53,143 nt of DNA, from IMG/VR virus record IMGVR_UViG_3300045988_065744, one strand, 5' to 3'. The position numbers and the translations under genes are program-made. The notes under the pieces were generated by a model. The model saw nothing but the letters and a program-made list of their open reading frames with translations, ran no database searches and was not told the origin of the DNA. The DNA comes from a virus. This document shows, piece after piece, positions 7,533 to 36,244 of this stretch (its first letter is position 1; each line of letters starts with the position of its first letter).

Positions 7533-7555
7533 TGGTACAGTGGATTTTTGACAAA

Positions 7556-7588
7556 GCCCGGCGGCAGCGATGCCGTGGGGCTTTTGTT
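7556..7588 (+). terminator. Leader terminator 1 of the late operon
   Basis: Stem gcccggcggc / gccgtggggc (one mismatch), followed by ttttgtt. Confidence 0.45.
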
Positions 7589-7630
7589 ATACAGAGCTGC
7601 TTACAATTCGTAAGCGACCCGCAAAATATA

Positions 7631-7667
7631 ATGCTCTGCCGGGTGCACCCGGTGGGGCATTTTTTAT
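7631..7667 (+). terminator. Leader terminator 2 of the late operon
   Basis: About 13-bp stem (atgctctgccggg / cccggtggggcat) with tgca loop, followed by ttttttatt. It sits immediately before the terS RBS. Confidence 0.55.
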
Positions 7668-7680
7668 TGGAGGATGCACA

Positions 7681-8914: not shown

Positions 8915-8994
8915 AAACCCGTGCACTGGCTGTGAATGGGGGTACGAACTGAATGAGCAGCAGGTGTATTGCCCACTGCCAAGGTGCGTGAACC

Positions 8995-10845: not shown

Positions 10846-11079
10846 ATGGCAGGAATTACGCTGGAACAGGCAGAAGCAAAACTTCAAACCTGGATGGAAG
10901 CGGAAGAAAAAATCGCCAGCGGACAGGGTTACTCCATTGGCGACCGCCGCCTGACCCGCGCCGACCTTTACACGGTCCGTGGCGAGATCGAATACTGGAA
11001 CAACAAAGTGAAAGAACTGGAAACGGCGGAAACGACTGGAAGAAACAAGATGTACCGGTTTGTGCCGCGTGATATTTGA
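10846..11079 (+). CDS. Head-tail joining protein, gpW-like
   Basis: 77 aa directly after terL. ...GQGYSIGDRRLTRADLYTVRGEIEYW... fits the lambda W family pattern and position. Confidence 0.6.
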   Translation: MAGITLEQAEAKLQTWMEAEEKIASGQGYSIGDRRLTRADLYTVRGEIEYWNNKVKELETAETTGRNKMYRFVPRDI

Positions 11080-11090
11080 CGGAGGGCAGC

Positions 11091-12728
11091 ATGGGCAAAA
11101 TGAACCTCATGGATCGCGCAATTGCCGCTGTTGCCCCGGAACGCGCCCTGCGCCGGGCAGCAGCGCGGGAAAGCCTACGCTTCATCAACTCCGGCTATGG
11201 GAACTACGGCGCGAGTACGACCAAGAAATCCATGCGCGGCTGGCTGTTTGCTGGCGGAAGTGCGAAAGAGGATATCGAAGATAACCTCAAAACGCTGCGC
11301 GAAAGAAGCCGCGACGCTTACATGGGTGTGCCAATCGCAACCGGCGCACTGAAAACGATGCGCACGAATGTTGTTGCAAGCGGCCTGACACCATCACCGC
11401 AGATTGACGCGGACTTTCTGAACATGACACCGGAGCAGGCAAATGACCTGCAAACGCAGATCGTCCGGGAATTTTCACTGTGGGCAGACAGCCCGCTTTG
11501 CGATGCTGACCGGGTGGATAATTTCTACAAGCTACAACAGCTGGCCTTCCTTGCCTACATGATGAACGGTGATGCTTTTGCTGTGCTGCCGATGCGGCAC
11601 AGTGTTGGACAGCCGTATGACCTGCGTGTGCAGCTGATCGAAGCTGACCGGGTGTGCAGCCCGGATCAGGATGACCGGTTGGCGCCGTGTGTGGTGGATA
11701 ACGTGTCCGTGCAAAGCATTGTGCAGGGTGTAGAGACGGACGGCAACGGTATGGTTATTGCTTACTGGATTTGCAATCAGCACCCATTGGCAAGTTTGTA
11801 CGCTCTGCCGGAACCGCTGAAATGGCAGCGTGTGAAAGCCTACGGTGAAACCACAGGACGCAGAAATATCTTGCACATCATGAACCGGGAACGTTCCGGG
11901 CAGCGGCGCGGCGTGCCGCTGCTGGCACCGGTACTGGAAGCGTTGAAACAGCTTGGACGATACACGGATGCTGAGATCACAGCCGCAGTCATTTCGGCGA
12001 TGTTTACGGTGTTTATCACAAAAGATAACCCGTCCATTGGCCGTCCACTGGGCGAGGTGATCCCGCCGAACCAGCAGATCGATGCGGCAGACCGTGGCAC
12101 AATTGAGCTGGGGTCTGGTTCAATCATCGACCTGAACCAAGGCGAGAAGGTGGAGTTTGCAGACCCGAAGCACCCGAACACGGGCTTTGATGCATTCTCT
12201 GCCGCTATCATCAAGCAGATTGCGGCGGCACTGGAAATCCCCAGTGAAGTGCTGATGAAGCAGTTCACGACGAGTTACAGCGCGGCGCGTGGTGCACTGA
12301 ACGAATTTTGGCGCACCTGCGATATGCAAAGAAGCTGGTTTGTGGACGACTTCTGCCAGCCCATCTATGAAGAATGGCTGACGGAAGCTGTTGCGACCGG
12401 ACGAGTAAAAGCGCCGGGTTTCTTTGATGATCCGGCAATCCGAAAAGCGTATACATCCTGCACATGGAATGGACCGGCGCGAACCAACCTGAACCCGGTG
12501 CAGGAAGTAGACGCTGCTGCGAAGCGCGTTGCAGCGGGCTTCTCGACGGCGGATCAGGAAACCGCGACCATGAACGGCGGTAGCTATGCAGCGAACATCC
12601 GCCAGCGCGTCATTGAAGCGAGAATGAAAAAGGAGGTGGACGACATTGCGAATGAGGGAAACACCCCGAAAAGGAACGAACCGAATCGTGAATCAGGCGG
12701 GAACCCCGCAGACCCCAAAAATGAATAA
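11091..12728 (+). CDS. Portal protein, lambda family
   Basis: ATG at 11091 after gacggaggg. About 545 aa, in the lambda gpB position between W and the protease. Confidence 0.85.
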   Translation: MGKMNLMDRAIAAVAPERALRRAAARESLRFINSGYGNYGASTTKKSMRGWLFAGGSAKEDIEDNLKTLRERSRDAYMGVPIATGALKTMRTNVVASGLTPSPQIDADFLNMTPEQANDLQTQIVREFSLWADSPLCDADRVDNFYKLQQLAFLAYMMNGDAFAVLPMRHSVGQPYDLRVQLIEADRVCSPDQDDRLAPCVVDNVSVQSIVQGVETDGNGMVIAYWICNQHPLASLYALPEPLKWQRVKAYGETTGRRNILHIMNRERSGQRRGVPLLAPVLEALKQLGRYTDAEITAAVISAMFTVFITKDNPSIGRPLGEVIPPNQQIDAADRGTIELGSGSIIDLNQGEKVEFADPKHPNTGFDAFSAAIIKQIAAALEIPSEVLMKQFTTSYSAARGALNEFWRTCDMQRSWFVDDFCQPIYEEWLTEAVATGRVKAPGFFDDPAIRKAYTSCTWNGPARTNLNPVQEVDAAAKRVAAGFSTADQETATMNGGSYAANIRQRVIEARMKKEVDDIANEGNTPKRNEPNRESGGNPADPKNE

Positions 12729-22536: not shown

Positions 22537-22547
22537 GGTGATAAAGC

Positions 22548-22751
22548 GTGGCATACACAACTGTAAGCGGCGATACGTTTGACAAGATCGCCAAAAAAGT
22601 TTACGGCGATGAATACTGTGCTGATATCCTGATGCAGGCAAACCCGGAACAAATCATGACGTTTTGTTTTGATTCTGGGGTTGTTCTGAAAACGCCGGAG
22701 CTGACCGAGGAACAGAGCGGAAGCCTGCCGCCCTGGAAGGAGAATGAATGA
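22548..22751 (+). CDS. Tail protein X-like (LysM-type)
   Basis: 67 aa, GTG start. MAYTTVSGDTFDKIAKKVYGDEYCADILMQANP is a LysM-like P2 gpX pattern. Confidence 0.6.
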   Translation: MAYTTVSGDTFDKIAKKVYGDEYCADILMQANPEQIMTFCFDSGVVLKTPELTEEQSGSLPPWKENE

Positions 22752-23977
22752 AACCGAGAAGGGCAAGCGTCAAGCTGATTTACAAAGAAAAGGACATTAC
22801 GTCTGATATCGAAGCTGACGTTGAAAGCATTTCCCATGAAGGAAACGCGGCAGACAGCAGCGACAGCCTGAGCGTCACCATAAATGCAATGGCAGACAAA
22901 TGGCTGGACGACTGGATGCCCACAAAAGGCACCACACTGGACGGCACGATCTTTACCCATGACTGGCCTGAAGAAGGACAGGAAGGGCAGATGAACGGCG
23001 GCGTTATGACCGTGGACAATATCGGCTACAGCGGCGCGCCCGGCACAATGACAATCAGTGCTACATCAAAGCCGAATGACACGAGCTTTTCGGAAGAAGA
23101 TCGGGAATTTATCTGGAAGAACACCAGCATTCAGAAAATCGCCCAGACGATTGCCGGGCGGTATTCGCTTGAACTGGGGTTTGATGGGAAGGACGCAGAA
23201 ATCGTAAAGCGAGAACAGAAGGCAACGGACAGTTCCTTCCTCGATGATCTATGCAAAGACTATGGTCTGATTCTGAAAGCGTACTCAAAGAAGCTGTGGA
23301 TTTATGACCGCGAAGCCTACAAGAAAAAGAAGGCGGCAGCGACCATAGATCGGACGGACATTGTGCCGGGGTCATTCAATTTTAACGATGGGTTTGACGG
23401 AACCTATACGCACGGTATATGGGAGTATTCAAACCAGAAAAAGAAAATAAAAATCCGAGCGGAGATCGGCAAGAACGGAAGGACAAAACGCATATCCAAA
23501 TATGCGTCCAGTCAGGCCGACGCAGAGCGTCGCCTGCAAGCAGCACTGGACAATGCAAACCATGGTTCAACCAAGATCAAGTTCAAGCTGGCGCTGGCCC
23601 AGATCGAGCTGTGCGAGAGCCAGAATGTCAATGTTACGGGCTATGGTAAACTGTCCGGCAAATACTTCATCGACAAGGTGACGTTGGAGTATAGCCGAAG
23701 CGGGCTTGAACAGACGCTTGAATGCAGCTGGGTTTCTGCTCTGGAAGAAAGTGAAAGTAACGGTAAAGCGGTGACGTTGCAAAACGCACCACTTTACTAC
23801 ACCAGCGTTGACAAAAAGCCGGTACGGACAGTAAGCGGCAAGTATTACCTCTACGACGGCGTGGCTGTGGCGGGAAGGTATAGGATCACGAACCTTGCTT
23901 CCCGTTGCGGCAAGACGCCTGTTGGAAAGAACGTGACCGGCTGGGTCGATGCGAAAGACGTTAGGAGCGTCACATGA
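22748..23977 (+). CDS. Late control D-like baseplate hub protein, possible C-terminal SH3b-like domain
   Basis: 409 aa in the P2 gpD / Mu gp44 position. The C-terminal KAVTLQNAPLYYTSVDKKPVRTVSGKYYLYDG...VTGWVDAKDV looks SH3b-like. Confidence 0.65.
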   Translation: MKPRRASVKLIYKEKDITSDIEADVESISHEGNAADSSDSLSVTINAMADKWLDDWMPTKGTTLDGTIFTHDWPEEGQEGQMNGGVMTVDNIGYSGAPGTMTISATSKPNDTSFSEEDREFIWKNTSIQKIAQTIAGRYSLELGFDGKDAEIVKREQKATDSSFLDDLCKDYGLILKAYSKKLWIYDREAYKKKKAAATIDRTDIVPGSFNFNDGFDGTYTHGIWEYSNQKKKIKIRAEIGKNGRTKRISKYASSQADAERRLQAALDNANHGSTKIKFKLALAQIELCESQNVNVTGYGKLSGKYFIDKVTLEYSRSGLEQTLECSWVSALEESESNGKAVTLQNAPLYYTSVDKKPVRTVSGKYYLYDGVAVAGRYRITNLASRCGKTPVGKNVTGWVDAKDVRSVT

Positions 23978-24621
23978 TGGCAGATTCAATACGGTTTGGC
24001 AAAGTATCAAACATCAACTACAAAACCGGCTGTATGGAAGTTACATACGAAGACCGGGAAGACAGTGTGACGGACATGATCCCGATGCTGGCGAATGCTG
24101 GGTACAAAATGCCGAAAGTCGGAGACACCGTTGTGGTGGCGCATAACTCCAACGGAGAAGAAGAAGGCGTGGTTTTGGGCACCACCTGGGGCGAAAATGA
24201 AAATCCCCCGGAGGGTGCCCAAAACCTTTACCGACAGGACTTCGATGGCAAACCCGGGAAGTGCTATTTCCGCTATGACGGAAAGAAAGCCACCTTCCAC
24301 AATGAGGGAGACACGAAGTCGGAAACCAAGAAGAACAAAACGGAAACAGTTGACGGAAATGCTGAACTGGAAGTGAAAGGGAAGCTGACCGTGAAAGTGG
24401 GAAGCTGCACCGTCACGATTCAGGGCGGCACCGTTCAGATCGTGGGCGGTTCTCAAATCAGTATGAATGCACCCACCATCACCATTGATGGCGGAACAGT
24501 CAACATCACAGGTGGTGGCGGCGACGCGGTAATCAGCGGGATCAGTCTGGTAAACCACACGCACAAGTATACGCTGCCGCTCCATGCCGGAGGCATGGGC
24601 GATACAGTAAAGCCGACGTAA
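23974..24621 (+). CDS. Baseplate spike / assembly protein V
   Basis: 215 aa. GKVSNINYKTGCMEVTYEDREDSVTDMIPML...GDTVVVAH is an OB-fold gpV pattern. The C-terminus is a beta-helix with HTH..LP. Confidence 0.7.
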   Translation: MMADSIRFGKVSNINYKTGCMEVTYEDREDSVTDMIPMLANAGYKMPKVGDTVVVAHNSNGEEEGVVLGTTWGENENPPEGAQNLYRQDFDGKPGKCYFRYDGKKATFHNEGDTKSETKKNKTETVDGNAELEVKGKLTVKVGSCTVTIQGGTVQIVGGSQISMNAPTITIDGGTVNITGGGGDAVISGISLVNHTHKYTLPLHAGGMGDTVKPT

Positions 24622-24639
24622 ATCGCAGGAGGACACAGT

Positions 24640-25032
24640 ATGCAGGTTGGATGTTTTGGCGGCCTTGTGTTTTCGGTAGACAGCAACAAGGTATTCACGA
24701 TGCAGGATATCCAAGGCAGTACGGGCAGCGATTGGGCGACCCACAACACAATCAACGGAAAACCGAAAAGCGAGCTGACCGGCCAGAAGTTGAAGGCGTA
24801 CAAGTTTACGGTCACGCTGGACGCGCAGTACGGTGTAAAGCCGCGTGAAATGCTGGCGAACATCCAGCGGATGGCGGAGGAAGGCACGGTGGACTACTTG
24901 ATTATTGGTAGCGACCCTGTGGGAATGTGCCTGTTTAAGCTGACGGATGCGTCCGATGCATGGGACTGCGTTGCTGCAGGTGGACGGCTTGTCCGCTGCA
25001 AAATCGATTTATCATTTGAGGAATACGCATGA
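24640..25032 (+). CDS. Tail protein, P2 gpU-like
   Basis: 130 aa. GLVFSVDSNKVF...DWATHNTINGKPKSELTGQKL...MAEEGTVDYLIIG resembles the gpU family. Confidence 0.5.
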   Translation: MQVGCFGGLVFSVDSNKVFTMQDIQGSTGSDWATHNTINGKPKSELTGQKLKAYKFTVTLDAQYGVKPREMLANIQRMAEEGTVDYLIIGSDPVGMCLFKLTDASDAWDCVAAGGRLVRCKIDLSFEEYA

Positions 25033-25334
25033 CTTTAGGAGAAGCGAAAATTCAGCTTGCATCATCCACCATGGAAGATGCAGAAGATATCTGCGAATGC
25101 CTGAAAGTGCTGTACTCCGCACGAGCCGGAGAGCAGGGCCTTGACCGGGACTTCGGCATTTCGCTGGATGCCGTGGACAAGCCGACCAGCGTTGCAAAAG
25201 CGCTGCTGGCGGCAGAAATTGTCCGCAAAACAAAGAAGTACGAACCCCGCGTTGAAGTGGTCCGCATTGAGTGGGACACGTCGAAGGTGGGGCAGGGGGT
25301 ATTGATCCCAAAGGTGGTGTTGAGAAGTGTCTGA
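25029..25334 (+). CDS. Baseplate wedge protein W (gp25-like)
   Basis: 101 aa. EDICECLKVLYSARAGEQGLDRDFGISLDAV is a GPW_gp25 pattern. Confidence 0.7.
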   Translation: MTLGEAKIQLASSTMEDAEDICECLKVLYSARAGEQGLDRDFGISLDAVDKPTSVAKALLAAEIVRKTKKYEPRVEVVRIEWDTSKVGQGVLIPKVVLRSV

Positions 25335-26478
25335 AATTTCACAGCTTCAAAATCTGCCGGATATCAGCTTTACCGACAACCTGACTATGAAGGAAGTGGA
25401 AGAGCTGACAAAGGGAGAGTTCAGTCAATCCATGCAGGAAGCAACCGGGCAGACACCGATTATTTACCCCGCCAGTGTCCCAGCACTGATACTGAAAGCA
25501 ATGACGCTTTTTGGCTACCAGATTTTGCAGTACGTCGATGCAGGCCCGAAACGAATGCTGCTGAAATACTCCGCCCACGACGATTTGGACGACCTGGCCG
25601 GGAACTATGGCTTGACCCGCCGCCCGGCTGAAAAAGCAAAGGTGACGATCCGGTTTACTCTGGCTGATGCAAAACAGCCTGGTGCTGTAGGCATTCCAGC
25701 GCAAACCCGCGTTAGAACACAGGACGGCATTTATTTTGCCACGATGGACTACGCGGAGATCACGCCAGGTTCGCAGTATGTGGACGTAGAAGCAGAAGCG
25801 GCAGAAGAAGGCGCGGCGTCGTCCGGCATTGAGGAAGGGCAAATCAATCAGCTGGTGGACCCCATCCCCTATGTTGCATCGGCGGTAAACGTTACGGCCA
25901 GCAGCGGTGGTACGGATATTGAAAGCGACGATTCGCTGACGGAGAGAACCTACCTGGTGCCCTCTACATATTCCTGTGCTGGTCCACCGGACGCTTATGA
26001 GTATTTCGCTAAGGCATGGCGAAACGACGTGAAGGACGTTTCCGTACAAAGCCCGTCGCCCTGCGTGGTGGACATTTATTTTACGTTACAGGATGGAACG
26101 CTGCCGAGCAAAAGTGATTGCGACAGCATGGAAGAAAATCTGCGCAATGATGCACGCCGACCCATGACGGACTATGTGAACTGCAAAGCCCCGACCGAGG
26201 TTGAGTACAGCATTGACGTGACCTATACCATTGCCCGCAGTAAATCCAAGATCGCCGTTACTGTACAGAACGCAGTGAACGAAGCGGTTGAAGTCTACAA
26301 GGCGTGGCAGCGCACCATGGGCAGGGACATTGACCCGGCGGAACTGATTGCACAAATCAAGAATGCCGGGGCAAAGAAGGTGAAGATCACCGCACCAACC
26401 GACGTTGTGGTGGGCAGCGCTGAGATTCCGAAGCTGACAACCTGCAATGTGGTGTACGGAGGACTGGAAGATGACTGA
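25327..26478 (+). CDS. Baseplate protein J
   Basis: 383 aa, GTG start, position after W. Baseplate_J-like central region. Confidence 0.78.
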   Translation: MSEISQLQNLPDISFTDNLTMKEVEELTKGEFSQSMQEATGQTPIIYPASVPALILKAMTLFGYQILQYVDAGPKRMLLKYSAHDDLDDLAGNYGLTRRPAEKAKVTIRFTLADAKQPGAVGIPAQTRVRTQDGIYFATMDYAEITPGSQYVDVEAEAAEEGAASSGIEEGQINQLVDPIPYVASAVNVTASSGGTDIESDDSLTERTYLVPSTYSCAGPPDAYEYFAKAWRNDVKDVSVQSPSPCVVDIYFTLQDGTLPSKSDCDSMEENLRNDARRPMTDYVNCKAPTEVEYSIDVTYTIARSKSKIAVTVQNAVNEAVEVYKAWQRTMGRDIDPAELIAQIKNAGAKKVKITAPTDVVVGSAEIPKLTTCNVVYGGLEDD

Positions 26479-27106
26479 TCTTCGCAATGCAAAGCTGACC
26501 GATCTGCTGCCGAAAAGCGTTGCAGACCAGCAATGGGTAAAGTCGATATCGGATGCATGGCATGAGCTGGCAATTCTGATTTTGGATTTTACCGACAATG
26601 CGAAAATCTACACGGGCATTGACCATGCATCGGATGAACTGCTGGACATTCTGGCAGTTCAATTCCGTGCGCCGCGCTACCGGCAGGACTACGACATCGA
26701 AACAAAACGGCGGCTTGTGAAAGCGTCCCTACCTTATTATATGACGGTGGGAACAAAAGCAGCTGTGGAAGATATGATGCGTGACCTGTACGGTGACGCG
26801 ACTGTGCGAGAATGGTTCGAGTACGACGGAACGCCGGGCTGCTTCCGAATCAAGATTAAGGCAGAAGGCCCAATCGACATTGAAGAAATGCTGGACATTC
26901 TCAGCCATGTAAAGCGGGCCAGCGCCCACCTGGATATGTTGCAGCTTTCCACGGAGGAAATGCACAAGCTGTTCTTCGGCTTTGCGTCGGTCACTGTGGG
27001 CAAGTGGTCTGGCGTGACGGCAGATGGAGAAAGCGTATTCAGCTGGCTTGTAGATGCGGACGAAAACGCCCTTCTGGACGCAGACGGGAACATCCTGACA
27101 GACTAA
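26471..27106 (+). CDS. Tail protein I (P2 gpI-like)
   Basis: ATGACTGA overlaps the J stop. LLPKSVADQQW...LLDILAVQFRAPRYRQDYDIETKRRLV pattern. Confidence 0.7.
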   Translation: MTDLRNAKLTDLLPKSVADQQWVKSISDAWHELAILILDFTDNAKIYTGIDHASDELLDILAVQFRAPRYRQDYDIETKRRLVKASLPYYMTVGTKAAVEDMMRDLYGDATVREWFEYDGTPGCFRIKIKAEGPIDIEEMLDILSHVKRASAHLDMLQLSTEEMHKLFFGFASVTVGKWSGVTADGESVFSWLVDADENALLDADGNILTD

Positions 27107-27118
27107 AAGGGGGAAACA

Positions 27119-28516
27119 ATGTTTTTTCCGAGTTTGATCCTGACCAATTCAGGCAGGGCTTTGATCGTGAAAGCTCTGAATGGCACCGCAATCAATTTCA
27201 CGAAATTTGCGCTGGGCGATGGCGCCGCACCAGAGGAACCGCGTGACCTGAAAAATCTTGTGCATTTGGCAGCCAATATGCAGATCAACAGCATTGAGCT
27301 GTCTGCAAACTGCGCCGTGCTGGAATCCACCTACACGAACAGCGGTCTGAAATCAAAGCTGGTCGCCCGGGAAATTGGCATCTTCGCCAACGACCCGGAC
27401 GATGGAGAAATCCTGTATGCATATGCCAATGCGGGAAACGAAGCTGCCGTTGTGCCGCCGGAGAGCGGCGACATGACGGTGCAGGAAACCTTCCACATGG
27501 TGGTTGCGGTTGGCGATGCAGAGCAGGTGACGGCAACGCTGGGCGAGTATTCCGGCTATGCCAGCAAGCAAGACCTGAAAGACCACATCGATGACCACAA
27601 CAATCCGCACCATGTTACGGCAGAGCAGATTGGTTTGGGCAATGTGCCCAATGTCACCCCGACGAACCAACAGCCGGTGTTCTCAAATGACTACATTACG
27701 AAGACGGATGGCTCCTACGATGTGCAGAATATCGCTTCCGGCGAAAAGCTGGGAAACATCCTGCGGAAGATTCGCACGGCAATTGCCGCCTTCATCGCAC
27801 ACCTTTCTGCAAAGAACCCGCACAAAATTTCCGCTGCGGACATTTCAGCAGCAGCAATGGACCACAAGCACAACGCGGATGATGTGACCAGCGGAACGTT
27901 CCCTATTTCTCGCGGCGGCACCGGTGCCCAGACCGCAACACAGGCGCTGGCGAATCTGGGTGCAATGCCTACGTCTGGCGGCACCTTTACGGGCGCGGTG
28001 CGGTTCCAGCAGTCTACATACTTTGGTACTGACAACAGTTATTACGTCGGCAGCGATGGCACGGCGAACTTCCGCAAAGTGTATGGTGCGGTCTATAACG
28101 ACTACGCCGAATGGTTCCCCCGTGGGTGCGATACCAAGCCGGGAGATATCATTGCGCTGGATGTGGGCAGCCAGACAGAACGGTATATCAAGGCGGTTGG
28201 AAAGATGGATCGCGTTGTGGGCGTGCACACGGACGAATATGCATACCTGATTGGCGGCGATACGCCGGACGAGAAAGACGACAACTTCAAAGCTAACATA
28301 GAAAAGTATATCCCCGTTTCCCTTGCAGGGCGCGTCAGAGTGCGCGTGACCGGCAGGGTGAAGACCGGGGATTTAATTTTGCCTTCGGGTACGCCTGGCA
28401 TTGGCCGGGCGGCCTGCGCAGGGGAGTTTGCTCCGGCAGAATGCATTGTCGGCTATGCGGTGGAAGGCGACGACCGGACGGATGAACGCCGCATTCGTGT
28501 CCGGGTGAGGGGGTGA
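27119..28516 (+). CDS. Tail fibre protein
   Basis: 465 aa. The N-terminus MFFPSLILTNSGRALIVKALNGTAINFTKFALGDG matches the P2 gpH-type fibre N-domain. The C-terminal ..VYNDYAEWFP.. region resembles auto-chaperone fibre ends. Confidence 0.75.
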   Translation: MFFPSLILTNSGRALIVKALNGTAINFTKFALGDGAAPEEPRDLKNLVHLAANMQINSIELSANCAVLESTYTNSGLKSKLVAREIGIFANDPDDGEILYAYANAGNEAAVVPPESGDMTVQETFHMVVAVGDAEQVTATLGEYSGYASKQDLKDHIDDHNNPHHVTAEQIGLGNVPNVTPTNQQPVFSNDYITKTDGSYDVQNIASGEKLGNILRKIRTAIAAFIAHLSAKNPHKISAADISAAAMDHKHNADDVTSGTFPISRGGTGAQTATQALANLGAMPTSGGTFTGAVRFQQSTYFGTDNSYYVGSDGTANFRKVYGAVYNDYAEWFPRGCDTKPGDIIALDVGSQTERYIKAVGKMDRVVGVHTDEYAYLIGGDTPDEKDDNFKANIEKYIPVSLAGRVRVRVTGRVKTGDLILPSGTPGIGRAACAGEFAPAECIVGYAVEGDDRTDERRIRVRVRG

Positions 28517-28520
28517 GAGG

Positions 28521-29432
28521 ATGCCGGAGAGAGGACAGTTTATTTCCGACGAAGATTTTCTTGCCCTGAAAAGCCTGATAGACGCAGAGATCGGTCGGCG
28601 CGGCAAGACAGAAGGCACCGCACAGGGACAGTCCGTTGGCAGCATGGCGGCATATAGGGGAGCGGCGTACCAGTACAATGTGACCCCGGCGGATGGCGTG
28701 AGCGTGGATGCAGAACACATCCAGAAAATCACCCGTCTGGTGGATGCCGTTCAGGGCGGTGCAACGACACCGGCGCGGGGAGACCAAGTTGCAGCATCGG
28801 GGCTTGCGCAAGCGGCGGCAACGGTAAGCACACTGAGCAATATCCCGGAAACTGCAACGGCGACCGGGTGCAGCGGGCAATGCACGGGGCTTTGCTCCAA
28901 TGGCTGCAACACGTCCTGTACCAGCTGCACCGGTAGCTGTGGCGGAGGGTGTGTAGGAACTTGCAGGGCAAATTGTGCGAATGACTGCACGGCTACTTGC
29001 AGGGGAACTTGTCAGGGGTCGTGCAGCAACACATGTTTAGGAAACTGCACAAATACCTGCAACACGACCTGCACTGCCACCTGCGCGAACGATTGCACCA
29101 ATGGCTGCAAGACGGGCTGCAAGGGAGGATGCAAAGGCGGCTGTGACGGTTGCTCCGGCAGCTGTTCCGGTAGCTGTGATGCTACCTGCGCGGACGATTG
29201 CACGGGACGGTGCAACGATAGGTGCGATTCCTACTGTGCGTCCAGCTGCCAGGACAGTTGCAGAGGAAATGGCTGCTTTGCAAACTGTAAAAGCGGCTGT
29301 TCTGACAGCTGCGAAGGAGACTGCAATTCTCACTGTGGCGCATCCTGCACAAGCAACTGTGATAGCAGTTGCAATGGATGCTCTGGAAGCTGCTCTGGCG
29401 GCTGTACATCTTGCTCTGGATTCCTGTGGTAA
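28521..29432 (+). CDS. CxxxC-repeat protein (116-aa Cys-free N-domain plus 187 aa with 47 Cys)
   Basis: CSGQCTGLCSNGCNTSCTSCTGSCGGGCVGTC...CSGSCSGGCTSCSGFLW. 41 of 46 Cys-Cys spacings are exactly three residues. RBS gggggtgagagg. Confidence 0.8.
   Translation: MPERGQFISDEDFLALKSLIDAEIGRRGKTEGTAQGQSVGSMAAYRGAAYQYNVTPADGVSVDAEHIQKITRLVDAVQGGATTPARGDQVAASGLAQAAATVSTLSNIPETATATGCSGQCTGLCSNGCNTSCTSCTGSCGGGCVGTCRANCANDCTATCRGTCQGSCSNTCLGNCTNTCNTTCTATCANDCTNGCKTGCKGGCKGGCDGCSGSCSGSCDATCADDCTGRCNDRCDSYCASSCQDSCRGNGCFANCKSGCSDSCEGDCNSHCGASCTSNCDSSCNGCSGSCSGGCTSCSGFLW
28869..29429 (+). repeat. 12-nt periodic coding repeat (TGC NNN NNN NNN)
   Basis: This is the nucleotide-level reflection of the CxxxC register. 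It also creates a long stop-free antisense frame. Confidence 0.8.
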
Positions 29433-29450
29433 CGAGAAAGGGAGAACAAA

Positions 29451-30026
29451 ATGGACGTGGCATTTGAACCGAACAACGACGCAAGAAGCGAAAAGGCGTA
29501 TACCAAAAATCTTCCGATGCTGAAAATCCAGACCCACGAAACGGTCAACCCGGAGGACTGGCAGGGACTTCTTGCAGATACACCGCCCGGCATGGAGAAA
29601 GTTTTCTGGTGCATCGGATGTGCCGGTATGTTCATGGTGAACACGGAAGATAAGTTCGATGTGTGGTGCGCATACTGCATCACAGTTGCACAGTCTGTAG
29701 TGACAGCCTGCGACGAAGACGCGGACGAAGACCGGATTTACCTGATGGGCTTTGGTCTGGCAGCCAGGACGTTCAACTTTGCGGCACACCCTGTCCGAAG
29801 AGGTGAGTGTGATCCTGCACCGTTCATCAAGGCGGCTCAGTATGAATGCAAAGACGATGTGGAGTTTTTCTCTATGTGGCACCTGCTTGTTGTGCTGATC
29901 GAACTGCTGCGGTTGAGCGAAACAGAAGATATGCACGATATGGTTTCGGCCATGGTCAAGATGAATCGGGTCCGTGCAAGATACCGTCAGGCGGCGGACA
30001 AGCTGCCGAAACGGGATGCACAGTAA
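29451..30026 (+). CDS. Hypothetical protein in the CxxxC/rSAM cassette
   Basis: 191 aa, RBS aagggag. Contains FWCIGCAGMF and WCAYC. Confidence 0.55.
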   Translation: MDVAFEPNNDARSEKAYTKNLPMLKIQTHETVNPEDWQGLLADTPPGMEKVFWCIGCAGMFMVNTEDKFDVWCAYCITVAQSVVTACDEDADEDRIYLMGFGLAARTFNFAAHPVRRGECDPAPFIKAAQYECKDDVEFFSMWHLLVVLIELLRLSETEDMHDMVSAMVKMNRVRARYRQAADKLPKRDAQ

Positions 30027-30036
30027 GGAGTGTACC

Positions 30037-30339
30037 ATGAAGAATATCAAAATCACCACACAGGAAAGTGAAGCTGTGGAGCGTGCCTACTACGAAGCGC
30101 AGTCCTATGAAGCGCTGATGGCAATTCTGTCCCGCCAGCTGAACGCTGGCGCGAATACGATGATAGCTGATATGCTGCACTACTACGCAGGACTGTGCCG
30201 GAAAGCGCAGATGAAGCTGAAGATGGTGCAGGACAAGGTGCTGGCGCGGTACATCGACCCGGAAGAGAACCCGAACCTGATCGTGCACTTCGACTTTGAG
30301 CGGGAGGAGGTACACCCCGTTGAGAACGAAAAAGTATGA
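30037..30339 (+). CDS. Small helical protein preceding the rSAM gene (possible CXXX-repeat modification system partner)
   Basis: 100 aa, start at MKNIKITTQESE after taaggag. Its end overlaps the rSAM start. Confidence 0.55.
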   Translation: MKNIKITTQESEAVERAYYEAQSYEALMAILSRQLNAGANTMIADMLHYYAGLCRKAQMKLKMVQDKVLARYIDPEENPNLIVHFDFEREEVHPVENEKV

Positions 30340-31648
30340 GGACTACGGGAATACCGTCCAGCGCTTATATGGCAGGGACAGACAGGAGTGTGGAAGCATC
30401 TGCCGAAGTATCACGTTCCAGATCACAAACGCCTGCAACCTGCGGTGCTCATACTGCTATGAGCACCACAAGTCTACCGAAAAAATGACGCTGGAAACCG
30501 GAAAGAAAATCGTGGACTACATCCTGAACCTGTACGAGGATAGCACATCCGATTTTGTGAACCGGGACACCAAAGCCATGATCCTGGACTTCATCGGCGG
30601 GGAACCGCTGCTGGAAGCTGAACTGATCGAGCATATCTGCGACTACTGGTTTTCGGAGTGCTACCGGCGGGAAATCCCGCTGGGACCGTTCACGCGCATT
30701 TCTTTTGCCACGAATGGCCGACTGTGGCGCTCCCCGGCGGCGCAGCACCTGCTGGAAAAGTACCATAATCTTATGTCGGTTACAGTGTCCATTGATGGCG
30801 TGCAAGAGCTGCACGACCGTTACCGCATCGACGAAGACGGAAACGGCAGCTTTTCTACCGCGTGGGCAGCATTCCAGGACGGCAAGCGGAAGTATGGTTG
30901 GCTCAACAGCAAAATGACCTTCGTGCCCGGCTCCATCCAGTACATTGCATCCAGTATGAAAATGATGCTGGATGCCGGGTGCAGGCACATTGCCGGGAAC
31001 TGCGCCTACGAGCCGATGTACACGGACGAGGACGGCAAGGCACTGTACAAGCAGCTGAAAGAGGTTTCGCAGTACGTTATCAAGAACGGCTGGGACGTGG
31101 CGATTGCTATGCTGGATGAACAGATCGGCGATGCAGAACAGAACGACCGAAACTTCTGCGGCGGAACCGGCGCAATGCTGAGTTTTGCCCCGGACGGGTC
31201 CGCGTATCCCTGCATCAGGTATGCGCCTATCTCTATTGGCAAAGAGAAGGCGGATCGGGTGTGTCTGGGCAATGTGCAGGAGGGCAGTCTGTATGCCACG
31301 GATCAGCAACGGCAGGTGAAGGAAGAACTGGATGCAATCACCATGAAATCACAGTCCACGGAAGAGTGCATCCATTGCCCGGTATCTTCCGGGTGCGGCT
31401 GGTGCAGTGGTTTGAACTATGAAATGTTCGGAACTGCAAACCGTAGGTATACCGGAATCTGCAAAGTTCACAAGGCGCGTGTGCTGGCTGTGTGCTGGTA
31501 CTGCAATATGCGCAGTATAGCTCTGGGAGATACCGCACCGAAGAAGGTGAATCTCCCCTACGAGGAAGTGGCGCGTCTGATCGGTGAGGATGAAGCCGCA
31601 GAGCTGAAAGCCATTGAGAAGGAGGCGGCAGAGAAATGGGCATGGTAA
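30320..31648 (+). CDS. Radical SAM / SPASM-domain peptide maturase
   Basis: CNLRCSYC (CX3CX2C) near the N-terminus. C-terminal auxiliary-cluster cysteines CGGTGAMLSFAPDGSAYPC and CIHCPVSSGCGWC. Probable TTG start at 30320 after gggaggagg (the ORF is open from 30296). Confidence 0.85.
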   Translation: MRTKKYEDYGNTVQRLYGRDRQECGSICRSITFQITNACNLRCSYCYEHHKSTEKMTLETGKKIVDYILNLYEDSTSDFVNRDTKAMILDFIGGEPLLEAELIEHICDYWFSECYRREIPLGPFTRISFATNGRLWRSPAAQHLLEKYHNLMSVTVSIDGVQELHDRYRIDEDGNGSFSTAWAAFQDGKRKYGWLNSKMTFVPGSIQYIASSMKMMLDAGCRHIAGNCAYEPMYTDEDGKALYKQLKEVSQYVIKNGWDVAIAMLDEQIGDAEQNDRNFCGGTGAMLSFAPDGSAYPCIRYAPISIGKEKADRVCLGNVQEGSLYATDQQRQVKEELDAITMKSQSTEECIHCPVSSGCGWCSGLNYEMFGTANRRYTGICKVHKARVLAVCWYCNMRSIALGDTAPKKVNLPYEEVARLIGEDEAAELKAIEKEAAEKWAW

Positions 31649-31896
31649 GTCTGGCAGACAAAGCCCTGGCAGAAGCGTTTGAAAGCGCGGACTATGTAAT
31701 CGTGGTTCGGAAACGAGCAGACGGAAAGAACGATCTCTACCGCGCAACCCCGGCACAGATCGCAAAAGTGGTGGGCGAAACCTTGCAGGTGCCGGGCATC
31801 AAAGCAAACCTGAACGCTTTGAAGCTGACCGCTTCGGACGATGGGCGCGGCGTGGTGACGCTCTCTCTGGGAGGTAAGACGGAATGGCAAACGTAA
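31636..31896 (+). CDS. Hypothetical tail-tip module protein
   Basis: 86 aa. Overlaps the rSAM stop. Confidence 0.45.
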   Translation: MGMVSLADKALAEAFESADYVIVVRKRADGKNDLYRATPAQIAKVVGETLQVPGIKANLNALKLTASDDGRGVVTLSLGGKTEWQT

Positions 31897-32126
31897 AAAT
31901 CGTAAGAGCCACCTACCTTGTCATTGACGGCACCACCTATAAGCTGATCGACGAAGACGTGCCGAACTGGGCAAAGGAACTGCTGCCGGATAAGACACTG
32001 AAAAAGGAAGGCTCTGCCGCCGATGCGGCAGCCACCGGAAAAAGACTGGAAAAACTGGAAGGGCTTCCGTACTTCTTTTATGACGAAGCCGGTCGCTTGA
32101 CCTTTGATGATGGACAGGAGGACTAA
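31884..32126 (+). CDS. Hypothetical tail-tip module protein
   Basis: 80 aa, RBS gggagg. Confidence 0.5.
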   Translation: MANVKIVRATYLVIDGTTYKLIDEDVPNWAKELLPDKTLKKEGSAADAAATGKRLEKLEGLPYFFYDEAGRLTFDDGQED

Positions 32127-32128
32127 AC

Positions 32129-33868
32129 ATGGCAAGAACTCACATGGCATCCGATGAATCCTTGCAGCAGATTTTTGCTGCGGTGTCCGGTACCACTATG
32201 GCGGCGGCGGGCGATGGACGTACCGCCGTTCTGGCAACCGGCAATGAAGATACCATCGACCGGTACTATAACGCGCTGGCTCAGAAAGTGACCACGGCAC
32301 GGGAAATGAACGTGCTGTTCGTAGACTGGTGGACGGCGAACTGGAATCCGAACACCAGCACCTATAACCGGATGCTGGAACGTTGGTTCGGCAATGTGCT
32401 GGACGACAGCCGCGTGCATGGCGTAAAGTTCCCGCTGTTCAGCACATCCAACACCGCAATCGGTGAGCTGACCGACGACAGCGTGGGCCTGTCCTGCACC
32501 CCGTCTACCGCAGCAGAATCCGGCAAGGATGATTTTGCCGGTCTGCCGCAGTTCTGGTGCGTGGAAGTGGCGGCGGAAAAGAACGAGGACGGCAGCCACA
32601 CGATCTACGCTTGCCAGTACATCGACGATGACGACTTTGTGCGCAGTACCAATCATCTGGTCTGGGTGTTGCAGAAGAATACCTATGTGCGTGAGCGCAA
32701 CGAGGGCGGCTACCGCATCCTGCGTATGCGCTGCCACCCGTCCGGCGGTTACGAGCAGTGGCCGCAGGGCACCGACCGTACCGGCAAGACCTATCCGTAC
32801 ATTGCAAACCCGAAGTATTTCGCCGGTATGCAGGATGACGGCAAGATCGGCGGTCACACGGGTTTGGCACCGGTGAACTACAAGAGCCACACCCAGCTGG
32901 TGCAGCTGTGGCGTGCTCGTGGCAGCCAGTACGCCGGTGCATCCGGCAACCTGCTGAAATGGCAGGAGCGCATGATCCAGCTGAAGTATGCACGCAAGGG
33001 CAACAGCGGCACCATTGAGGGCTGCACTTCCTACAACTACCAGTACACTGCCGCCATTGATGCAGAGGGCGTGAACTACTTCCCGGTGACGACCGAGCAG
33101 GCCGCAAACCTGCTTATTGATTCCTACGTTGCCATTGGCACCCACACGAAGAGCACGACCGACCGTAACGATGCCACCATGCATGACATCCAGACCGAAG
33201 CCCGCATTACCCGCATTGAAGACATCAACGTGGACGGAACGGGCTACAAAGCAGTCTACGTTGATACCGGCGATACCTGGAATGTGGTCAAGGGGCAGAC
33301 GATGCTATCCACTATGCCTTATGGCAGCGGTTATAACGACAGCGTGCGCGGCAACGATGGCTCGCGCACCAACTACACCAACGGCAAGGAACCTGGCTTG
33401 ATCCAGAAGACGGAGTTCCAGAACGGCGCATACCTGATCGTGGCGGATGAACTGTGGCAGTGGGGCAAGGATGGCGACGGCAATTACACCTTTGACATCT
33501 ACACCTGCCACGACCAGACGAAGGTGACGACCGATGGTTCTATCTCTGCTGACTACACGAAGCAGGAAGACCTGACGCTGACCTTCCCGGAAGGCACAGC
33601 CAACGCATGGCAGTATATCGAAGATACGGCAATCAGCAATGACCCGGCGGTGCTGTGGCCTGCTGCCGTGTCTACCCGTGCGGGCAGCGGAACCGGCGTT
33701 AAGGCTGGCTTCTACGTCTTTCCGGCTGCGTCCGGTGTCCGCGCGGCTTGGCGGTGCTGCTACTTGTTCTACGGCGGCGGTGCGTCTTTGGCGGCGGCGC
33801 TCTCGAGCTACTGGGTCGGTACCGCGTACTGGTACGGCGGCGCTGGCGTGCCTGGCCTTGCTGGGTAA
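32129..33868 (+). CDS. DGR target protein (putative receptor-binding protein with C-terminal variable region)
   Basis: 579 aa, RBS caggagg. The last 56 codons contain the VR (...AAWRCCYLFYGGGASLAAALSSYWVGTAYWYGGAGVPGLAG). Confidence 0.85.
   Translation: MARTHMASDESLQQIFAAVSGTTMAAAGDGRTAVLATGNEDTIDRYYNALAQKVTTAREMNVLFVDWWTANWNPNTSTYNRMLERWFGNVLDDSRVHGVKFPLFSTSNTAIGELTDDSVGLSCTPSTAAESGKDDFAGLPQFWCVEVAAEKNEDGSHTIYACQYIDDDDFVRSTNHLVWVLQKNTYVRERNEGGYRILRMRCHPSGGYEQWPQGTDRTGKTYPYIANPKYFAGMQDDGKIGGHTGLAPVNYKSHTQLVQLWRARGSQYAGASGNLLKWQERMIQLKYARKGNSGTIEGCTSYNYQYTAAIDAEGVNYFPVTTEQAANLLIDSYVAIGTHTKSTTDRNDATMHDIQTEARITRIEDINVDGTGYKAVYVDTGDTWNVVKGQTMLSTMPYGSGYNDSVRGNDGSRTNYTNGKEPGLIQKTEFQNGAYLIVADELWQWGKDGDGNYTFDIYTCHDQTKVTTDGSISADYTKQEDLTLTFPEGTANAWQYIEDTAISNDPAVLWPAAVSTRAGSGTGVKAGFYVFPAASGVRAAWRCCYLFYGGGASLAAALSSYWVGTAYWYGGAGVPGLAG
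33702..33851 (+). repeat. DGR variable repeat (VR)
   Basis: 150 bp, 134/150 identical to 33957-34106. All 16 differences lie opposite adenines of the other copy. Confidence 0.92.
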
Positions 33869-33879
33869 AGCGGGGTGAA

Positions 33880-33901
33880 TTGCCCGGCATCGTCCGGGCA
33901 A
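33880..33901 (+). promoter_or_regulatory. Hairpin downstream of VR (candidate DGR target-recognition stem-loop)
   Basis: ttgcccgg-catcgt-ccgggcaa, an 8-bp perfect stem 29 nt after the VR end. A second hairpin, aggggc-agcca-gcccct plus tttt, follows. Confidence 0.5.
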
Positions 33902-33956
33902 GAGGGGCAGCCAGCCCCTTTTGACGATAACAGGATTTGGGATGCATGGTGTCCAC

Positions 33957-34106
33957 AGGCTGGCTTCTACGTCAATCCGGCAGCGTCCGGTGTCCGCGCG
34001 GCTTGGCGGTGCTGCAACTTGAACAACGGCGGCAATGCGTCTTTGGCGGCGGCGAACTCGAACAACTGGGTCGGTAACGCGAACTGGAACGGCGGCGCTG
34101 GCGTGC
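33957..34106 (+). repeat. DGR template repeat (TR)
   Basis: Non-coding copy. It carries 25 adenines, 16 of which are substituted in the VR. It holds 11 AAC/AAT codons in the VR reading register. Confidence 0.92.
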
Positions 34107-34310
34107 AACTGGTTCACCAAAAATCATCAATCATTGCATCATGCATTCCGCGCTTATGTGCGAAAATTTCTTGAAACCAGCATCACGGCGCTGCGTCCGC
34201 AGGAAAGGGCGGGTCCATCCGTGGCGGCAGGACAAGGAACCTGCTGGCGGCTAGTAGCATAGGGCAAAAGCCTGAACCCGAAAGTCGTTGAAGAACCAGA
34301 TGATTTTTAT

Positions 34311-35549
34311 ATGAAAACATTTTGTAAACCAAAAGACGTTGACATTGAGGATGTCGGTTTCAACCTGTCAGCGGTACATTGTGCGTTTGGAAACGGAAAA
34401 CTCCGGCGCAGGGATTTTAGAACGGTTCTAACAAAGACCGGAAAAATCTCTGAACCGGAGCTGTTTCATGAACGAAAGAACCACGAGTGCAGGAAGATCG
34501 TTGATGCCATTGACGCAGTGGCCGAACGGGAAACACAGAAGATTAGGGATGAATGCCTTGACCTGAAACCTGTCCGGCAGTTCAAGCGGATTGATGGCAT
34601 CAAGATGAAGGAACGGGACCTTTGCCAGGAATCACCGGAACAGCAGGTACATGAGTACATTCTTGTTCATGCACTGCAACCGCTACTCCATGCAAAGCTG
34701 CTGCCGATGCAGTTCGGGAGCATCCCGGGCAAAGGACAGGTGGCGGGAACGCGGCAGATTGAGCGGATCGTCCGAAAGAAAATCCTTGGCAAACTGGATG
34801 CAGTCAAGGGCGATGTGCACAAAGCATATCCGTCTACAACGATAGTCTGCGTGATAACGCTTTTGAAACGGGACATCAGAAAGAACAAAAAGCTGATCTG
34901 GTATGCCGGTGCCGTGACCGAAAACTACCCGGACGGCGTGCTGCTAATCGGCGGGTATTTCTCAACGTGGGCTTTCAACTACGTTATGAGCTATATTCTC
35001 CGATACCTGCTATCTCTAAAGCAGGTCCGGCGCGGCACGGGGACACGGCTTGTCCGCGAGATCGTCTGCTATGCGGATGATTTTGTAATCATCGGGCACG
35101 CATCACAGCTGATGAAAGCGATGAAGAAGGCGACCCGCTGGGTAAAGTCCACACTGGGCTTAGAGTTAAAGCAGGCATGGCAGCAGGTGCGCTTTGCATC
35201 ATTCGAGGAAGAAAAGCGTGCGAAAGCCGCCAGAGCGCAGGGAAGCAAACACCGTACACCGGCGCTGGACATGATGGGATTCGCGGTGCGCCGCACATAT
35301 ACCATCGTCCGCAAAGGCGTGTTCCGCCGCATCAGGCGGCAGCTGATCCGCGCAGGGCGTAACCTTGCAATGCTGGGCTATGTTCCGCATTGGCGTGCAT
35401 CAAAGCTGACCGCATACAACGGCTGGTTTACAAACAGCGATAGCGCAAACCTTGAAGAAAAATATCAGGTCGAAACGATCATGAAAGCAGCGCGGTGGAG
35501 CGTTGCCCGATGGTCGATGATCCAGAACAACAGGAGGAAAGCAGCATGA
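34311..35549 (+). CDS. Reverse transcriptase, DGR type
   Basis: 412 aa. YADD catalytic box (IVCYADDFVIIG). LLIGGYFSTW occupies the position of the DGR-typical IGxxxSQ motif. It lies 205 nt downstream of the TR. Confidence 0.88.
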   Translation: MKTFCKPKDVDIEDVGFNLSAVHCAFGNGKLRRRDFRTVLTKTGKISEPELFHERKNHECRKIVDAIDAVAERETQKIRDECLDLKPVRQFKRIDGIKMKERDLCQESPEQQVHEYILVHALQPLLHAKLLPMQFGSIPGKGQVAGTRQIERIVRKKILGKLDAVKGDVHKAYPSTTIVCVITLLKRDIRKNKKLIWYAGAVTENYPDGVLLIGGYFSTWAFNYVMSYILRYLLSLKQVRRGTGTRLVREIVCYADDFVIIGHASQLMKAMKKATRWVKSTLGLELKQAWQQVRFASFEEEKRAKAARAQGSKHRTPALDMMGFAVRRTYTIVRKGVFRRIRRQLIRAGRNLAMLGYVPHWRASKLTAYNGWFTNSDSANLEEKYQVETIMKAARWSVARWSMIQNNRRKAA

Positions 35550-35932
35550 GTGAGATTTATCCCTTCCTGCCGGCCGCCGTTGAGGTGTTTCGCGTTGGCA
35601 GCAAAACGGACATGATCCTGCGGAAGGATATCAAAAAGCAGGAACAGACCGATGACGAAGGCAAGAAGTATACCGTCTACGCCTGCGACGAACGCCAGCA
35701 GCGTGTGGATGGTGTGCTGACCGCCGAGGAAGTTCAGACGGACTTTGACAAATGGTGGGACTATGCGCCGCCTACACCCGTCCCGGTGCCGGAAGAAAAG
35801 AAGCTGGAAGACCGGGTGAAGGAGCTGGAAAACCAGAACGCCACCATGGCAGACCAGCTCACTAGCACCCAGATGGCGCTTTGTGATGTGTACGAACAGG
35901 TGCTGAGCGTGACCAGCACCGCCACGGAATGA
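35546..35932 (+). CDS. Hypothetical protein with C-terminal coiled coil
   Basis: ATG at 35546 (caggagg RBS) overlaps the RT stop. 128 aa. Confidence 0.55.
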   Translation: MSEIYPFLPAAVEVFRVGSKTDMILRKDIKKQEQTDDEGKKYTVYACDERQQRVDGVLTAEEVQTDFDKWWDYAPPTPVPVPEEKKLEDRVKELENQNATMADQLTSTQMALCDVYEQVLSVTSTATE

Positions 35933-35948
35933 GCAGGGGGTATGAACT

Positions 35949-36074
35949 ATGAGCACTGACTACATGGCAACGGTCTACGCAGACCTGATTCGCAAAGGCA
36001 AGAAAACTCTGGCACAGGTGCCCAAGAGCTTGCAGAAAAAGGTGAAAGCCCTGCTGGCGGAGGACAACAAGTGA
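35949..36074 (+). CDS. Mini-protein (41 aa), paralogue 1
   Basis: MSTDYMATVYADLIRKGKKTLAQVPKSLQKKVKALLAEDNK. Below the ORF-track cutoff. Shares VYA.LI.KG.KT..QVP with the next ORF. Confidence 0.5.
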   Translation: MSTDYMATVYADLIRKGKKTLAQVPKSLQKKVKALLAEDNK

Positions 36075-36127
36075 GTGTTCTTCGTGAGCTGATGCTTAAA
36101 ATTTTGCTGAAAAAGGAGGTGGACGTA

Positions 36128-36244
36128 ATGGCAGTTGTCTATGCTACCCTTATCATCAAGGGCAGGAAGACCATTGACCAGGTTCCGGCAATCATCCGGG
36201 ATGAGGTCAAGCAGATTCTGAAAGACCTGGAAGTTGAGGTCTGA
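36128..36244 (+). CDS. Mini-protein (38 aa), paralogue 2
   Basis: MAVVYATLIIKGRKTIDQVPAIIRDEVKQILKDLEVEV, with RBS aaaaaggaggtg. Confidence 0.55.
   Translation: MAVVYATLIIKGRKTIDQVPAIIRDEVKQILKDLEVEV

Follow-up and report, generated by a model that had tools for sequence, protein, structure and literature searches.

We analyzed a four-gene cassette at positions 28521-31648 of the IMG/VR virus record IMGVR_UViG_3300045988_065744, the whole 53,143-nucleotide stretch of which we call the window. The cassette encodes a cysteine-rich CXXX-repeat protein (the target), two open reading frames (ORFs B and C) and a radical S-adenosylmethionine (rSAM) enzyme with a SPASM domain (Table 1). The window belongs to a contractile-tailed gut phage, and its genes run in the order terminase, portal, major head protein, sheath, tape measure, baseplate, fiber, cassette, diversity-generating retroelement (DGR) and endolysin.

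Table 1. Positions of the cassette genes and surrounding features in the window
Feature	Position	Strand	Description
Target, CXXX-repeat protein	28521-29432	+	303 aa; N-domain and repeat region
Target N-domain	28521-28868	+	116 aa, Cys-free, three helices predicted
Target CXXX-repeat region	28869-29432	+	47 Cys; presumed rSAM substrate
Radical SAM/SPASM enzyme	30296-31648	+	450 aa from TTG 30296; CXXX-repeat maturase lineage
ORF B	29451-30026	+	191 aa, all-helical, invariant Cys87
ORF C	30037-30339	+	100 aa; remote TIGR04116 homolog (likely); presumed rSAM partner
Tail fiber gene	27119-28516	+	465 aa; PHROG tail fiber, E = 7e-36
Two small overlapping ORFs	31636-31896, 31884-32126		86 and 80 aa; between rSAM and DGR target gene
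DGR target gene	32129-33868		phrog_17147, unknown function
DGR variable region (VR) and template repeat (TR)	VR 33702-33851; TR 33957-34106		150-nt pair, 89% identical
DGR reverse transcriptase (RT)	34311-35549		

The initial annotation of this stretch divided the target into a Cys-free N-domain of 116 residues and a region of 47 cysteines in which 41 of the 46 spacings are exactly three residues, and our recount agrees. Residues 1-116 contain no cysteine, all 47 lie between residues 117 and 298, and the other spacings are of two residues (four times) or four (once). In simulations that placed 47 cysteines in 187 positions, three-residue spacings averaged 4.9 and reached a maximum of 16 in 20,000 trials. 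The X positions are occupied by G31, S28, T21, N16, D12, A10, R5, K4 and others; G, S, T, N, D, A and K, which had been said to dominate, account for 87% of them. The consensus of the repeat unit is C-(T/S/A)-G-(S/T/G). The repeat starts with a conserved entry motif, GCxxxC(S/T)GLCxxxC, and ends in a short aromatic tail (GFLW in the window); the motif GCxxxC(S/T)GLC is also present in some Bacteroidales targets.

In the target DNA, Tandem Repeats Finder detected no more than three short arrays, each with about two copies, which rules out an origin of the Cys pattern by DNA tandem repetition and indicates that the protein, not the DNA, maintains it. In ten strains that are 94-100% identical, none of the 47 repeat Cys columns varies, as against 23 of the 141 X columns (Fisher p = 0.0014); because the Cys columns are invariant where the X columns vary, the register is selected at the protein level. 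Purifying selection acts on the target cysteines, whereas the X residues and the number of repeats are variable.

No signal peptide was found in the N-domain, whose invariant residues in the alignment are E23, R26, R27, Y45, E65, H66 and K69 and whose database match is phrog_6085, a family of unknown function. Its Cys-free peptides include SLIDAEIGR, GAAYQYNVTPADGVSVDAEHIQK and LVDAVQGGATTPAR. Precomputed annotation assigns the Pfam family PF27846 to seven homologs (P0001, P0002, P0006, P0007, P0010, P0012 and P0021), so part of the target protein may already be described by a recent Pfam entry.

The assignment of the last gene as a radical SAM/SPASM enzyme was confirmed by Pfam models above their cutoffs (Radical_SAM PF04055, 39.8 bits, cutoff 29.5; SPASM PF13186, 23.0 bits, cutoff 21.5). 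The enzyme carries the cluster motif C47-x3-C51-x2-C54 (CNLRCSYC) and the SPASM cysteines C288, G-x4-C306, C358-x2-C361-x5-C367-x2-C370 and C389, the last spacing being x2 where the canonical one is x3. Across 186 homologs, the three rSAM and seven SPASM cysteines are conserved at 99-100%. About 36 residues precede the rSAM core in the phage enzyme, and there is no fused RiPP (ribosomally synthesized and post-translationally modified peptide) recognition element (RRE). The TTG at 30296 has no ribosome-binding site, and an in-frame TTG at 30320 is preceded by a GGGAGGAGG site, so the N-terminus is uncertain by eight residues.

The best NCBIfam match of the enzyme is TIGR04115, the CXXX-repeat target family maturase, aligned over profile positions 2-359 of 359, and its identity to bacterial CXXX maturases is 33-37%. 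Next come PapB (NF047865; 155.6 bits, under the cutoff of 340), CcpM (90 bits), the SCIFF maturase (90 bits), QhpD (77.7 bits) and DynA (74 bits); sactipeptide synthases (60 bits), anaerobic sulfatase-maturating enzymes (anSMEs; 55 bits) and cyclophane-forming SPASM enzymes (48-67 bits) match more weakly.

The initial annotation correctly placed a 100-aa ORF before the rSAM gene but skipped the 191-aa ORF B, which proves to be a conserved phage-specific protein, although not a universal one. ORF C gave no hmmscan match to the NCBIfam model of the CXXX partner family, TIGR04116 (cutoff 50 bits), even at E <= 10. The phage C profile aligned end to end with the bacterial TIGR04116 profile in hhalign at 85-86% (E = 5e-6), with control pairs at <= 0.7%. 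ORF C is likely a remote homolog of TIGR04116, judged by profile comparison, and its membership is not certified; the expected partner family was thus recovered at the profile level but not by a direct model match. Wherever it is present in the surveyed loci, ORF C lies directly upstream of the rSAM gene. A PqqD-type RRE was considered for ORF C and found no support in PDB and Pfam searches, and its helices followed by a C-terminal strand pair, predicted from reading the sequence, are unlike the RRE fold. One 334-aa homolog, P0192, holds the target and a C-like domain in a single frame (hhalign 84% to the phage C profile) and could be a true fusion or the product of a lost stop codon.

ORF B is a conserved family in the window's phage branch, as seen from its positional homologs, and has zero matches in NCBIfam, Pfam and PHROG. 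AlphaFold2 (AF2) predicts a confident all-helical fold (predicted local distance difference test (pLDDT) score of 88.8). The search of this fold against the PDB returned nothing significant (best E = 0.45; ComR-like helical domains at a TM score of 0.41), and in BFVD it matches uncharacterized phage proteins only. An identity with the second CXXX maturase, TIGR04119, was rejected (hhalign 0.1%; the CxxC pairs of the window protein are not conserved). ORF B is absent from the phage locus L163 and from a more distant phage branch (group B), whose B-like ORFs are not demonstrably homologous to it (11% and 0.6%). Sequence searches of ORF B, ORF C, TIGR04116 and the fiber tip against the PDB returned nothing significant.

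Conservation of the cassette and its place in the tail module

Scanning IMG/VR with the rSAM enzyme returned at least 370 relatives, the best 80 of which are 57-100% identical to it. The order fiber, target, B, C, rSAM recurs in essentially every one of these best 80 loci that has upstream sequence; in them, the N-domain keeps a constant length of ~112-116 aa and the number of Cys varies between 13 and 64. When the N-domain profile was searched exhaustively (E <= 1e-3), 453 cluster representatives at 50% identity were recovered, in which the domain is almost always N-terminal. Cys repeats follow it in 95 of the 109 full-length proteins (87%) among 150 representatives listed, and most of the 14 exceptions are visibly repeats read out of frame. 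Outside Cys-repeat proteins, the N-domain is essentially absent.

A distant sub-branch of the N-domain, used as a query, led to 73 further viral loci, 70 of which have Cys repeats. In all but two of the loci with full flanks, an rSAM gene lies within ~2.5 kb, either downstream of the target or, in permuted order, directly upstream. Target and rSAM genes, 864 nt apart in the window, thus adjoin in ~80 and ~65 phage loci of the two sets. A contig from an NCBI metagenome-assembled genome (MAG), L163, has the minimal order target, C, rSAM, and together with the losses in the distant branch it defines the conserved core as target plus rSAM, usually with C. Synteny in related phages and siting in tail modules, which the initial annotation had set as a test of its reading, were both confirmed; the fixed trio of genes that it described gave way to this core.

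The target adjoins fiber genes, and precedes the lysis genes, in five unrelated backbones (the window, L001, L163, L168 and L200). In L168 the fiber is of the tail-collar type and another tail protein follows the cassette; in L200 the fiber is collagen-like (843 aa), and the cassette is succeeded by ORFs of holin type and an endolysin gene. In the window's own branch, the cassette co-occurs only with the C-terminal ~220 aa of the fiber (residues ~245-465), a part that is covered in 63-65 of 66 diverged loci. The nearest cultured relatives of the window are the Faecalibacterium phages FP_Toutatis and Lelie (TerL 63% identical), and its host is probably Faecalibacterium or a relative. FP_Toutatis has baseplate genes in common with the window, together with a different fiber and no cassette, which marks the fiber tip and cassette as an exchangeable accessory module.

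The window cassette is also coupled to its module as an operon. Intergenic gaps in the module range from -44 to +18 nt, the stretch from 22352 to 36128 contains no predicted + strand promoter-like site, and the first strong + strand terminator is the one at 36254. The cassette had been placed between a tail fiber gene and a DGR target gene in the late operon; this location holds, with a PHROG match for the fiber and a true DGR downstream.

Several homologs depart from the window's target in length or architecture. P0001, with an N-domain 99% identical to that of the window, and P0010, P0012 and P0015 (53-56%) show large in-frame deletions of repeat units (235 versus 303 aa) or frameshifts in the repeat, which reflect either rapid length variation or assembly errors. 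P0116, P0144 and P0157 have an extra domain of ~135-170 aa before the N-domain or inserted in it, without a Pfam match and, for P0116, without a match in PDB and phage-database searches; a role in binding is possible for them. The tail of P0155 has no Pfam or PDB match and resembles only hypothetical proteins from Faecalibacterium phages. In contigs L133-L137, from Candidatus Termititenax / Margulisiibacteriota MAGs, targets of 495-667 aa (for example, L133 5405-7408) combine 70-110 CxxxC units with an N-domain resembling the phage one; the adjoining rSAM is ~30% identical to that of the window, and BLAST found no TIGR04116 or TIGR04119 there. The IMG/VR contig L230 (GC 45%) encodes a 587-aa target with 122 Cys (5995-7758) and an adjacent rSAM of 1181 aa (8269-11814), whose extra segments match terminase and ribonucleotide reductase PHROGs and therefore suggest one or more inteins.

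Relation to known maturation systems

The CXXX-repeat families named in the initial annotation exist in NCBIfam. The bacterial system, which is defined computationally only, comprises targets (TIGR04114/TIGR04117), an rSAM enzyme (TIGR04115), a second maturase (TIGR04119) and a small partner (TIGR04116). L002, deposited as an unverified phage sequence but bacterial in appearance, matches the full set strongly: a Tat-signal CXXX-repeat protein is encoded with TIGR04115 (630 bits), TIGR04119 (235 bits) and TIGR04116 (105 bits) proteins, followed by TatA and TatC. Among the matches listed in a scan of species-representative genomes, many Bacteroidales have an L002-like layout, and Clostridia have 52-88-aa short-leader peptides with a fused TIGR04115-TIGR04119 enzyme. 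The same scan, inspected for prophage hosts, contained no relative above 40% identity among these matches.

The phage cassette shares with this system the C-x3-C repeat and its unit composition, an rSAM enzyme homologous over its full length, a small partner that is likely homologous, and the adjacency of the genes. It differs in having no TIGR04119, which in bacterial loci is free-standing or fused, and a C protein too diverged for the TIGR04116 model. In place of a Tat signal or short leader, the phage target has a 116-aa phage-specific N-domain, and the cassette adds protein B and sits in a phage tail module.

PapB, which matures PapA (freyrasin) of Paenibacillus polymyxa, is a SPASM rSAM enzyme with two auxiliary clusters that installs one thioether per CXXXD repeat (PMC12373016). 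Both systems pair such an enzyme with a tandem C-x3 motif. In PapA, however, the acceptor Asp stands at +4, where the phage target has the next Cys, and PapA is a small secreted peptide with six repeats, as against 47 Cys in a 303-aa protein. PapB is not found in a phage context, and the phage enzyme scores far under the PapB cutoff.

Other relatives resemble the phage pair in part. QhpD is a SPASM rSAM enzyme that forms intra-chain Cys thioethers in QhpC, a subunit of a larger assembly, and we know of no closer precedent for the use of RiPP-type chemistry on a structural subunit. QhpC differs in lacking a repeat, in carrying three cross-links, made to Asp or Glu, and in belonging to a periplasmic enzyme complex; the relationship in sequence is also a distant one. 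Likewise, the SCIFF maturases (CteB, Tte1186) and sactipeptide synthases are SPASM enzymes that form thioethers on Cys-rich peptides; their substrates differ in being short and leader-containing, with six Cys, and the enzymes carry a fused RRE. Covalent cross-links also strengthen the virion in the isopeptide chainmail of the HK97 capsid. Whereas that reaction is autocatalytic, the proposed one would rely on a dedicated radical enzyme and take place on a protein associated with the tail, for which we know of no precedent and our literature searches gave none. Set beside RiPP systems in general, the cassette has an enzyme-substrate gene pair and, in the position of a leader, a conserved 116-aa folded-looking domain; it contains no protease or exporter gene. 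The system appears to work like RiPP maturation, but on a protein.

Proposed modification of the target and alternative explanations

That the rSAM enzyme and the Cys-repeat protein are enzyme and substrate is strongly supported by linkage and homology, because the two are co-inherited across deep divergence and through permutation of gene order, with C as the usual third partner. On this basis we propose that the cassette is a phage-adapted CXXX-repeat system that modifies, most likely by thioether cross-linking, a protein associated with the tail fiber, a proposal to which we give an even chance. We infer the tail location and the cross-linking from gene position and enzyme homology, respectively.

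In this proposal the late operon would produce the 303-aa target, as its structure suggests, and the SPASM enzyme, with the TIGR04116-like protein C as its partner, would modify the 47 regularly spaced cysteines post-translationally. The modification would most likely consist of thioether cross-links from Cys sulfur to carbon, forming a chain of small rings. Thioether chemistry is suggested by the closest characterized relatives, PapB, the SCIFF maturase and QhpD, which all make thioethers, and by the action of PapB on a repeated CXXXD motif. The N-domain, from the position of its gene, may anchor the modified Cys-rich segment to the tail fiber or baseplate, and the segment would then be a reduction- and protease-resistant virion appendage of variable length. 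Protein B might be a branch-specific helper, perhaps a chaperone or scaffold, although this is a guess. A place in the tail is indicated by the position of the gene, its coupling to the operon, the loss of the export signal and the gain of a phage-only N-domain. A stronger version, which we find possible but rather doubtful, is that many gut phages build a tail appendage with a protein-sized poly-thioether 'ladder' as its shaft, anchored to the fiber by the N-domain. The stitching that this would require of the phage enzyme, with 13 to more than 100 CxxxC units joined into small rings, we consider similarly tentative.

A number of observations weigh against the proposal. The acceptor of a thioether is doubtful because position +4 relative to each Cys is taken by another Cys and the repeat has few acidic residues (12 Asp, 1 Glu). 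No TIGR04119 homolog was found in the window cassette or, by hidden Markov model (HMM), in the 73 distant-branch loci, and the reaction in phages may therefore be a different or an incomplete one. The other family models expected from the initial annotation gave a mixed outcome: the target is above the cutoff for TIGR04114 by a small margin (25.6 bits, cutoff 20) and under that for TIGR04117 (35.5 bits, cutoff 50), and the enzyme scores 306.5 bits on TIGR04115, under the curated cutoff of 350. The enzyme of L001 scores 300.6 bits, compared with 630 for the bacterial one of L002, and we treat the phage enzymes, from these scores, as a sister or divergent branch of TIGR04115 rather than certified members. 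Full-text literature searches found no biochemical characterization of the CXXX-repeat family, in line with the initial annotation.

Further points bear on a structural role. Bacterial relatives are Tat-exported proteins or short peptides, which suggests that the ancestral role was not structural, and PHROG and Pfam searches detected no homology of the target to any known virion protein. The window-type fiber tip is linked to the target in only 2 of 72 distant-branch loci. The cassette was found in no cultured phage, either as near-identical DNA or at the protein level, where matches come from uncultured gut contigs only. The repeat was modeled with AF2, as the initial annotation had envisaged, and gained no confident fold (pLDDT 27-47; 50-67 for the N-domain; 43.7 for the whole target); this failure fits a structure that depends on modification or ligands, but proves nothing.

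The cassette could instead be cargo (a 'moron'), a RiPP-like unit that the phage carries without building it into the virion, although we regard this as unlikely. In its favor, bacterial homologs are exported through a Tat signal or are short RiPP-like peptides rather than structural proteins, no structural homology was found for the N-domain, and the close relative FP_Toutatis does without the cassette. Accessory genes, moreover, often sit between tail-fiber and lysis genes. The product would then act in the infected cell or on release at lysis, where similarly unlikely roles include a redox or metal buffer, a modulator of superinfection or defense, and a bacteriocin-like factor. Cargo of this kind is harder to reconcile with a cassette that has no promoter or terminator of its own and whose genes overlap or abut in the late tail operon, with a target in which a phage-only N-domain has replaced the signal peptide or leader, or with the place of that target beside a fiber gene in five unrelated backbones, even where the cassette order is permuted.

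It is less probable still that the enzyme modifies the cysteines by a chemistry other than thioether cross-linking. Formylglycine formation as in anSMEs, another C-S or C-C bond and inter-chain or inter-protein cross-links are each conceivable but improbable, in a family that is uncharacterized, on a repeat with sparse Asp and Glu acceptors and without TIGR04119. The scores of the enzyme against anSMEs and cyclophane-forming SPASM enzymes are compatible with such reactions, but its five strongest characterized matches are mostly Cys-thioether enzymes acting on Cys-rich substrates, and the anSME motif C/S-x-P/A-x-R is absent from the repeat units.

Very unlikely, finally, is a metallothionein-like or iron-sulfur thiolate array with the rSAM enzyme as an accessory or minor component: the composition of the repeat (25% Cys with G/S/T/N/D/A/K and almost no aromatics) is metallothionein-like, Bacteroidales homologs use the Tat pathway, typical of cofactor-loaded proteins, and AF2 sees no autonomous fold, but in phages and bacteria alike the linkage of the target to an rSAM of the peptide-maturase type is obligate, the strict C-x3-C register of the target is unlike the C-x-C and C-x-x-C clusters of metallothioneins, and we know of no rSAM/SPASM enzyme that loads metals onto a target.

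The pairing of an rSAM/SPASM maturase with a Cys-rich target is already known, as is the CXXX family from computation. New here is a phage lineage with a protein-sized target, the N-domain, protein B, no TIGR04119 and a placement beside the tail fiber; no relevant paper came up in full-text searches that covered CXXX-repeat systems, the names of the families and rSAM/SPASM enzymes in phage tails. CXXX-repeat maturases are a large rSAM family that has been known only computationally for over a decade, and a compact phage system of two to four genes with a soluble 47-site substrate could reveal their chemistry. The system is also widespread, with at least 370 rSAM relatives and 453 N-domain clusters, and is labeled 'hypothetical' or generically 'radical SAM'. 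If the proposed cross-linking of a tail protein is true, it would introduce a new way of constructing virions, in which an enzyme reinforces a tail protein covalently. This protein would be the first virion component known to be cross-linked by an enzyme, and its maturation would be the first use of RiPP-type radical chemistry for structural material. Such reinforcement might then explain how a tail appendage survives in the reducing, protease-rich gut, and a genetically encoded, length-tunable poly-thioether rod would be of interest to protein engineers.

Fiber tip, jumbo-phage enzymes and DGR

The Pfam model Phage_tail_fib scores 22.3 bits on the window fiber, with a cutoff of 23. The C-terminal ~220 aa of this fiber have an HxH...RGGTGA motif in common with the R-type pyocin fiber 6CL5 (E = 7e-4) and phage fibers. 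At the C-terminus, a Peptidase_G2 intramolecular-chaperone autoproteolytic domain is detected below threshold in 8 of 11 members (best E = 2.4e-4). This Peptidase_G2-like region corresponds to window positions 28000-28516 (residues ~290-465), and the similarity raises the possibility that the fiber tip may be cleaved off after folding.

Cultured jumbo phages of Erwinia, Salmonella and Cronobacter encode rSAM/SPASM-like proteins with ~25% identity over ~80% of the window enzyme. These proteins, one example being in NC_031010.1 (140308-141483; H9), are annotated just as 'radical SAM superfamily protein'.

The DGR downstream of the cassette is genuine and complete, with all 16 of its VR/TR mismatches at TR adenines; no Avd-like gene was identified between the DGR target gene and the RT gene. 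The two small overlapping ORFs that separate the DGR target gene from the rSAM gene have no family match. They are kept only where the DGR target is the same, as in L043, L059 and L063 (55-62% identity), and are probably part of the DGR/receptor-binding module, not of the cassette.

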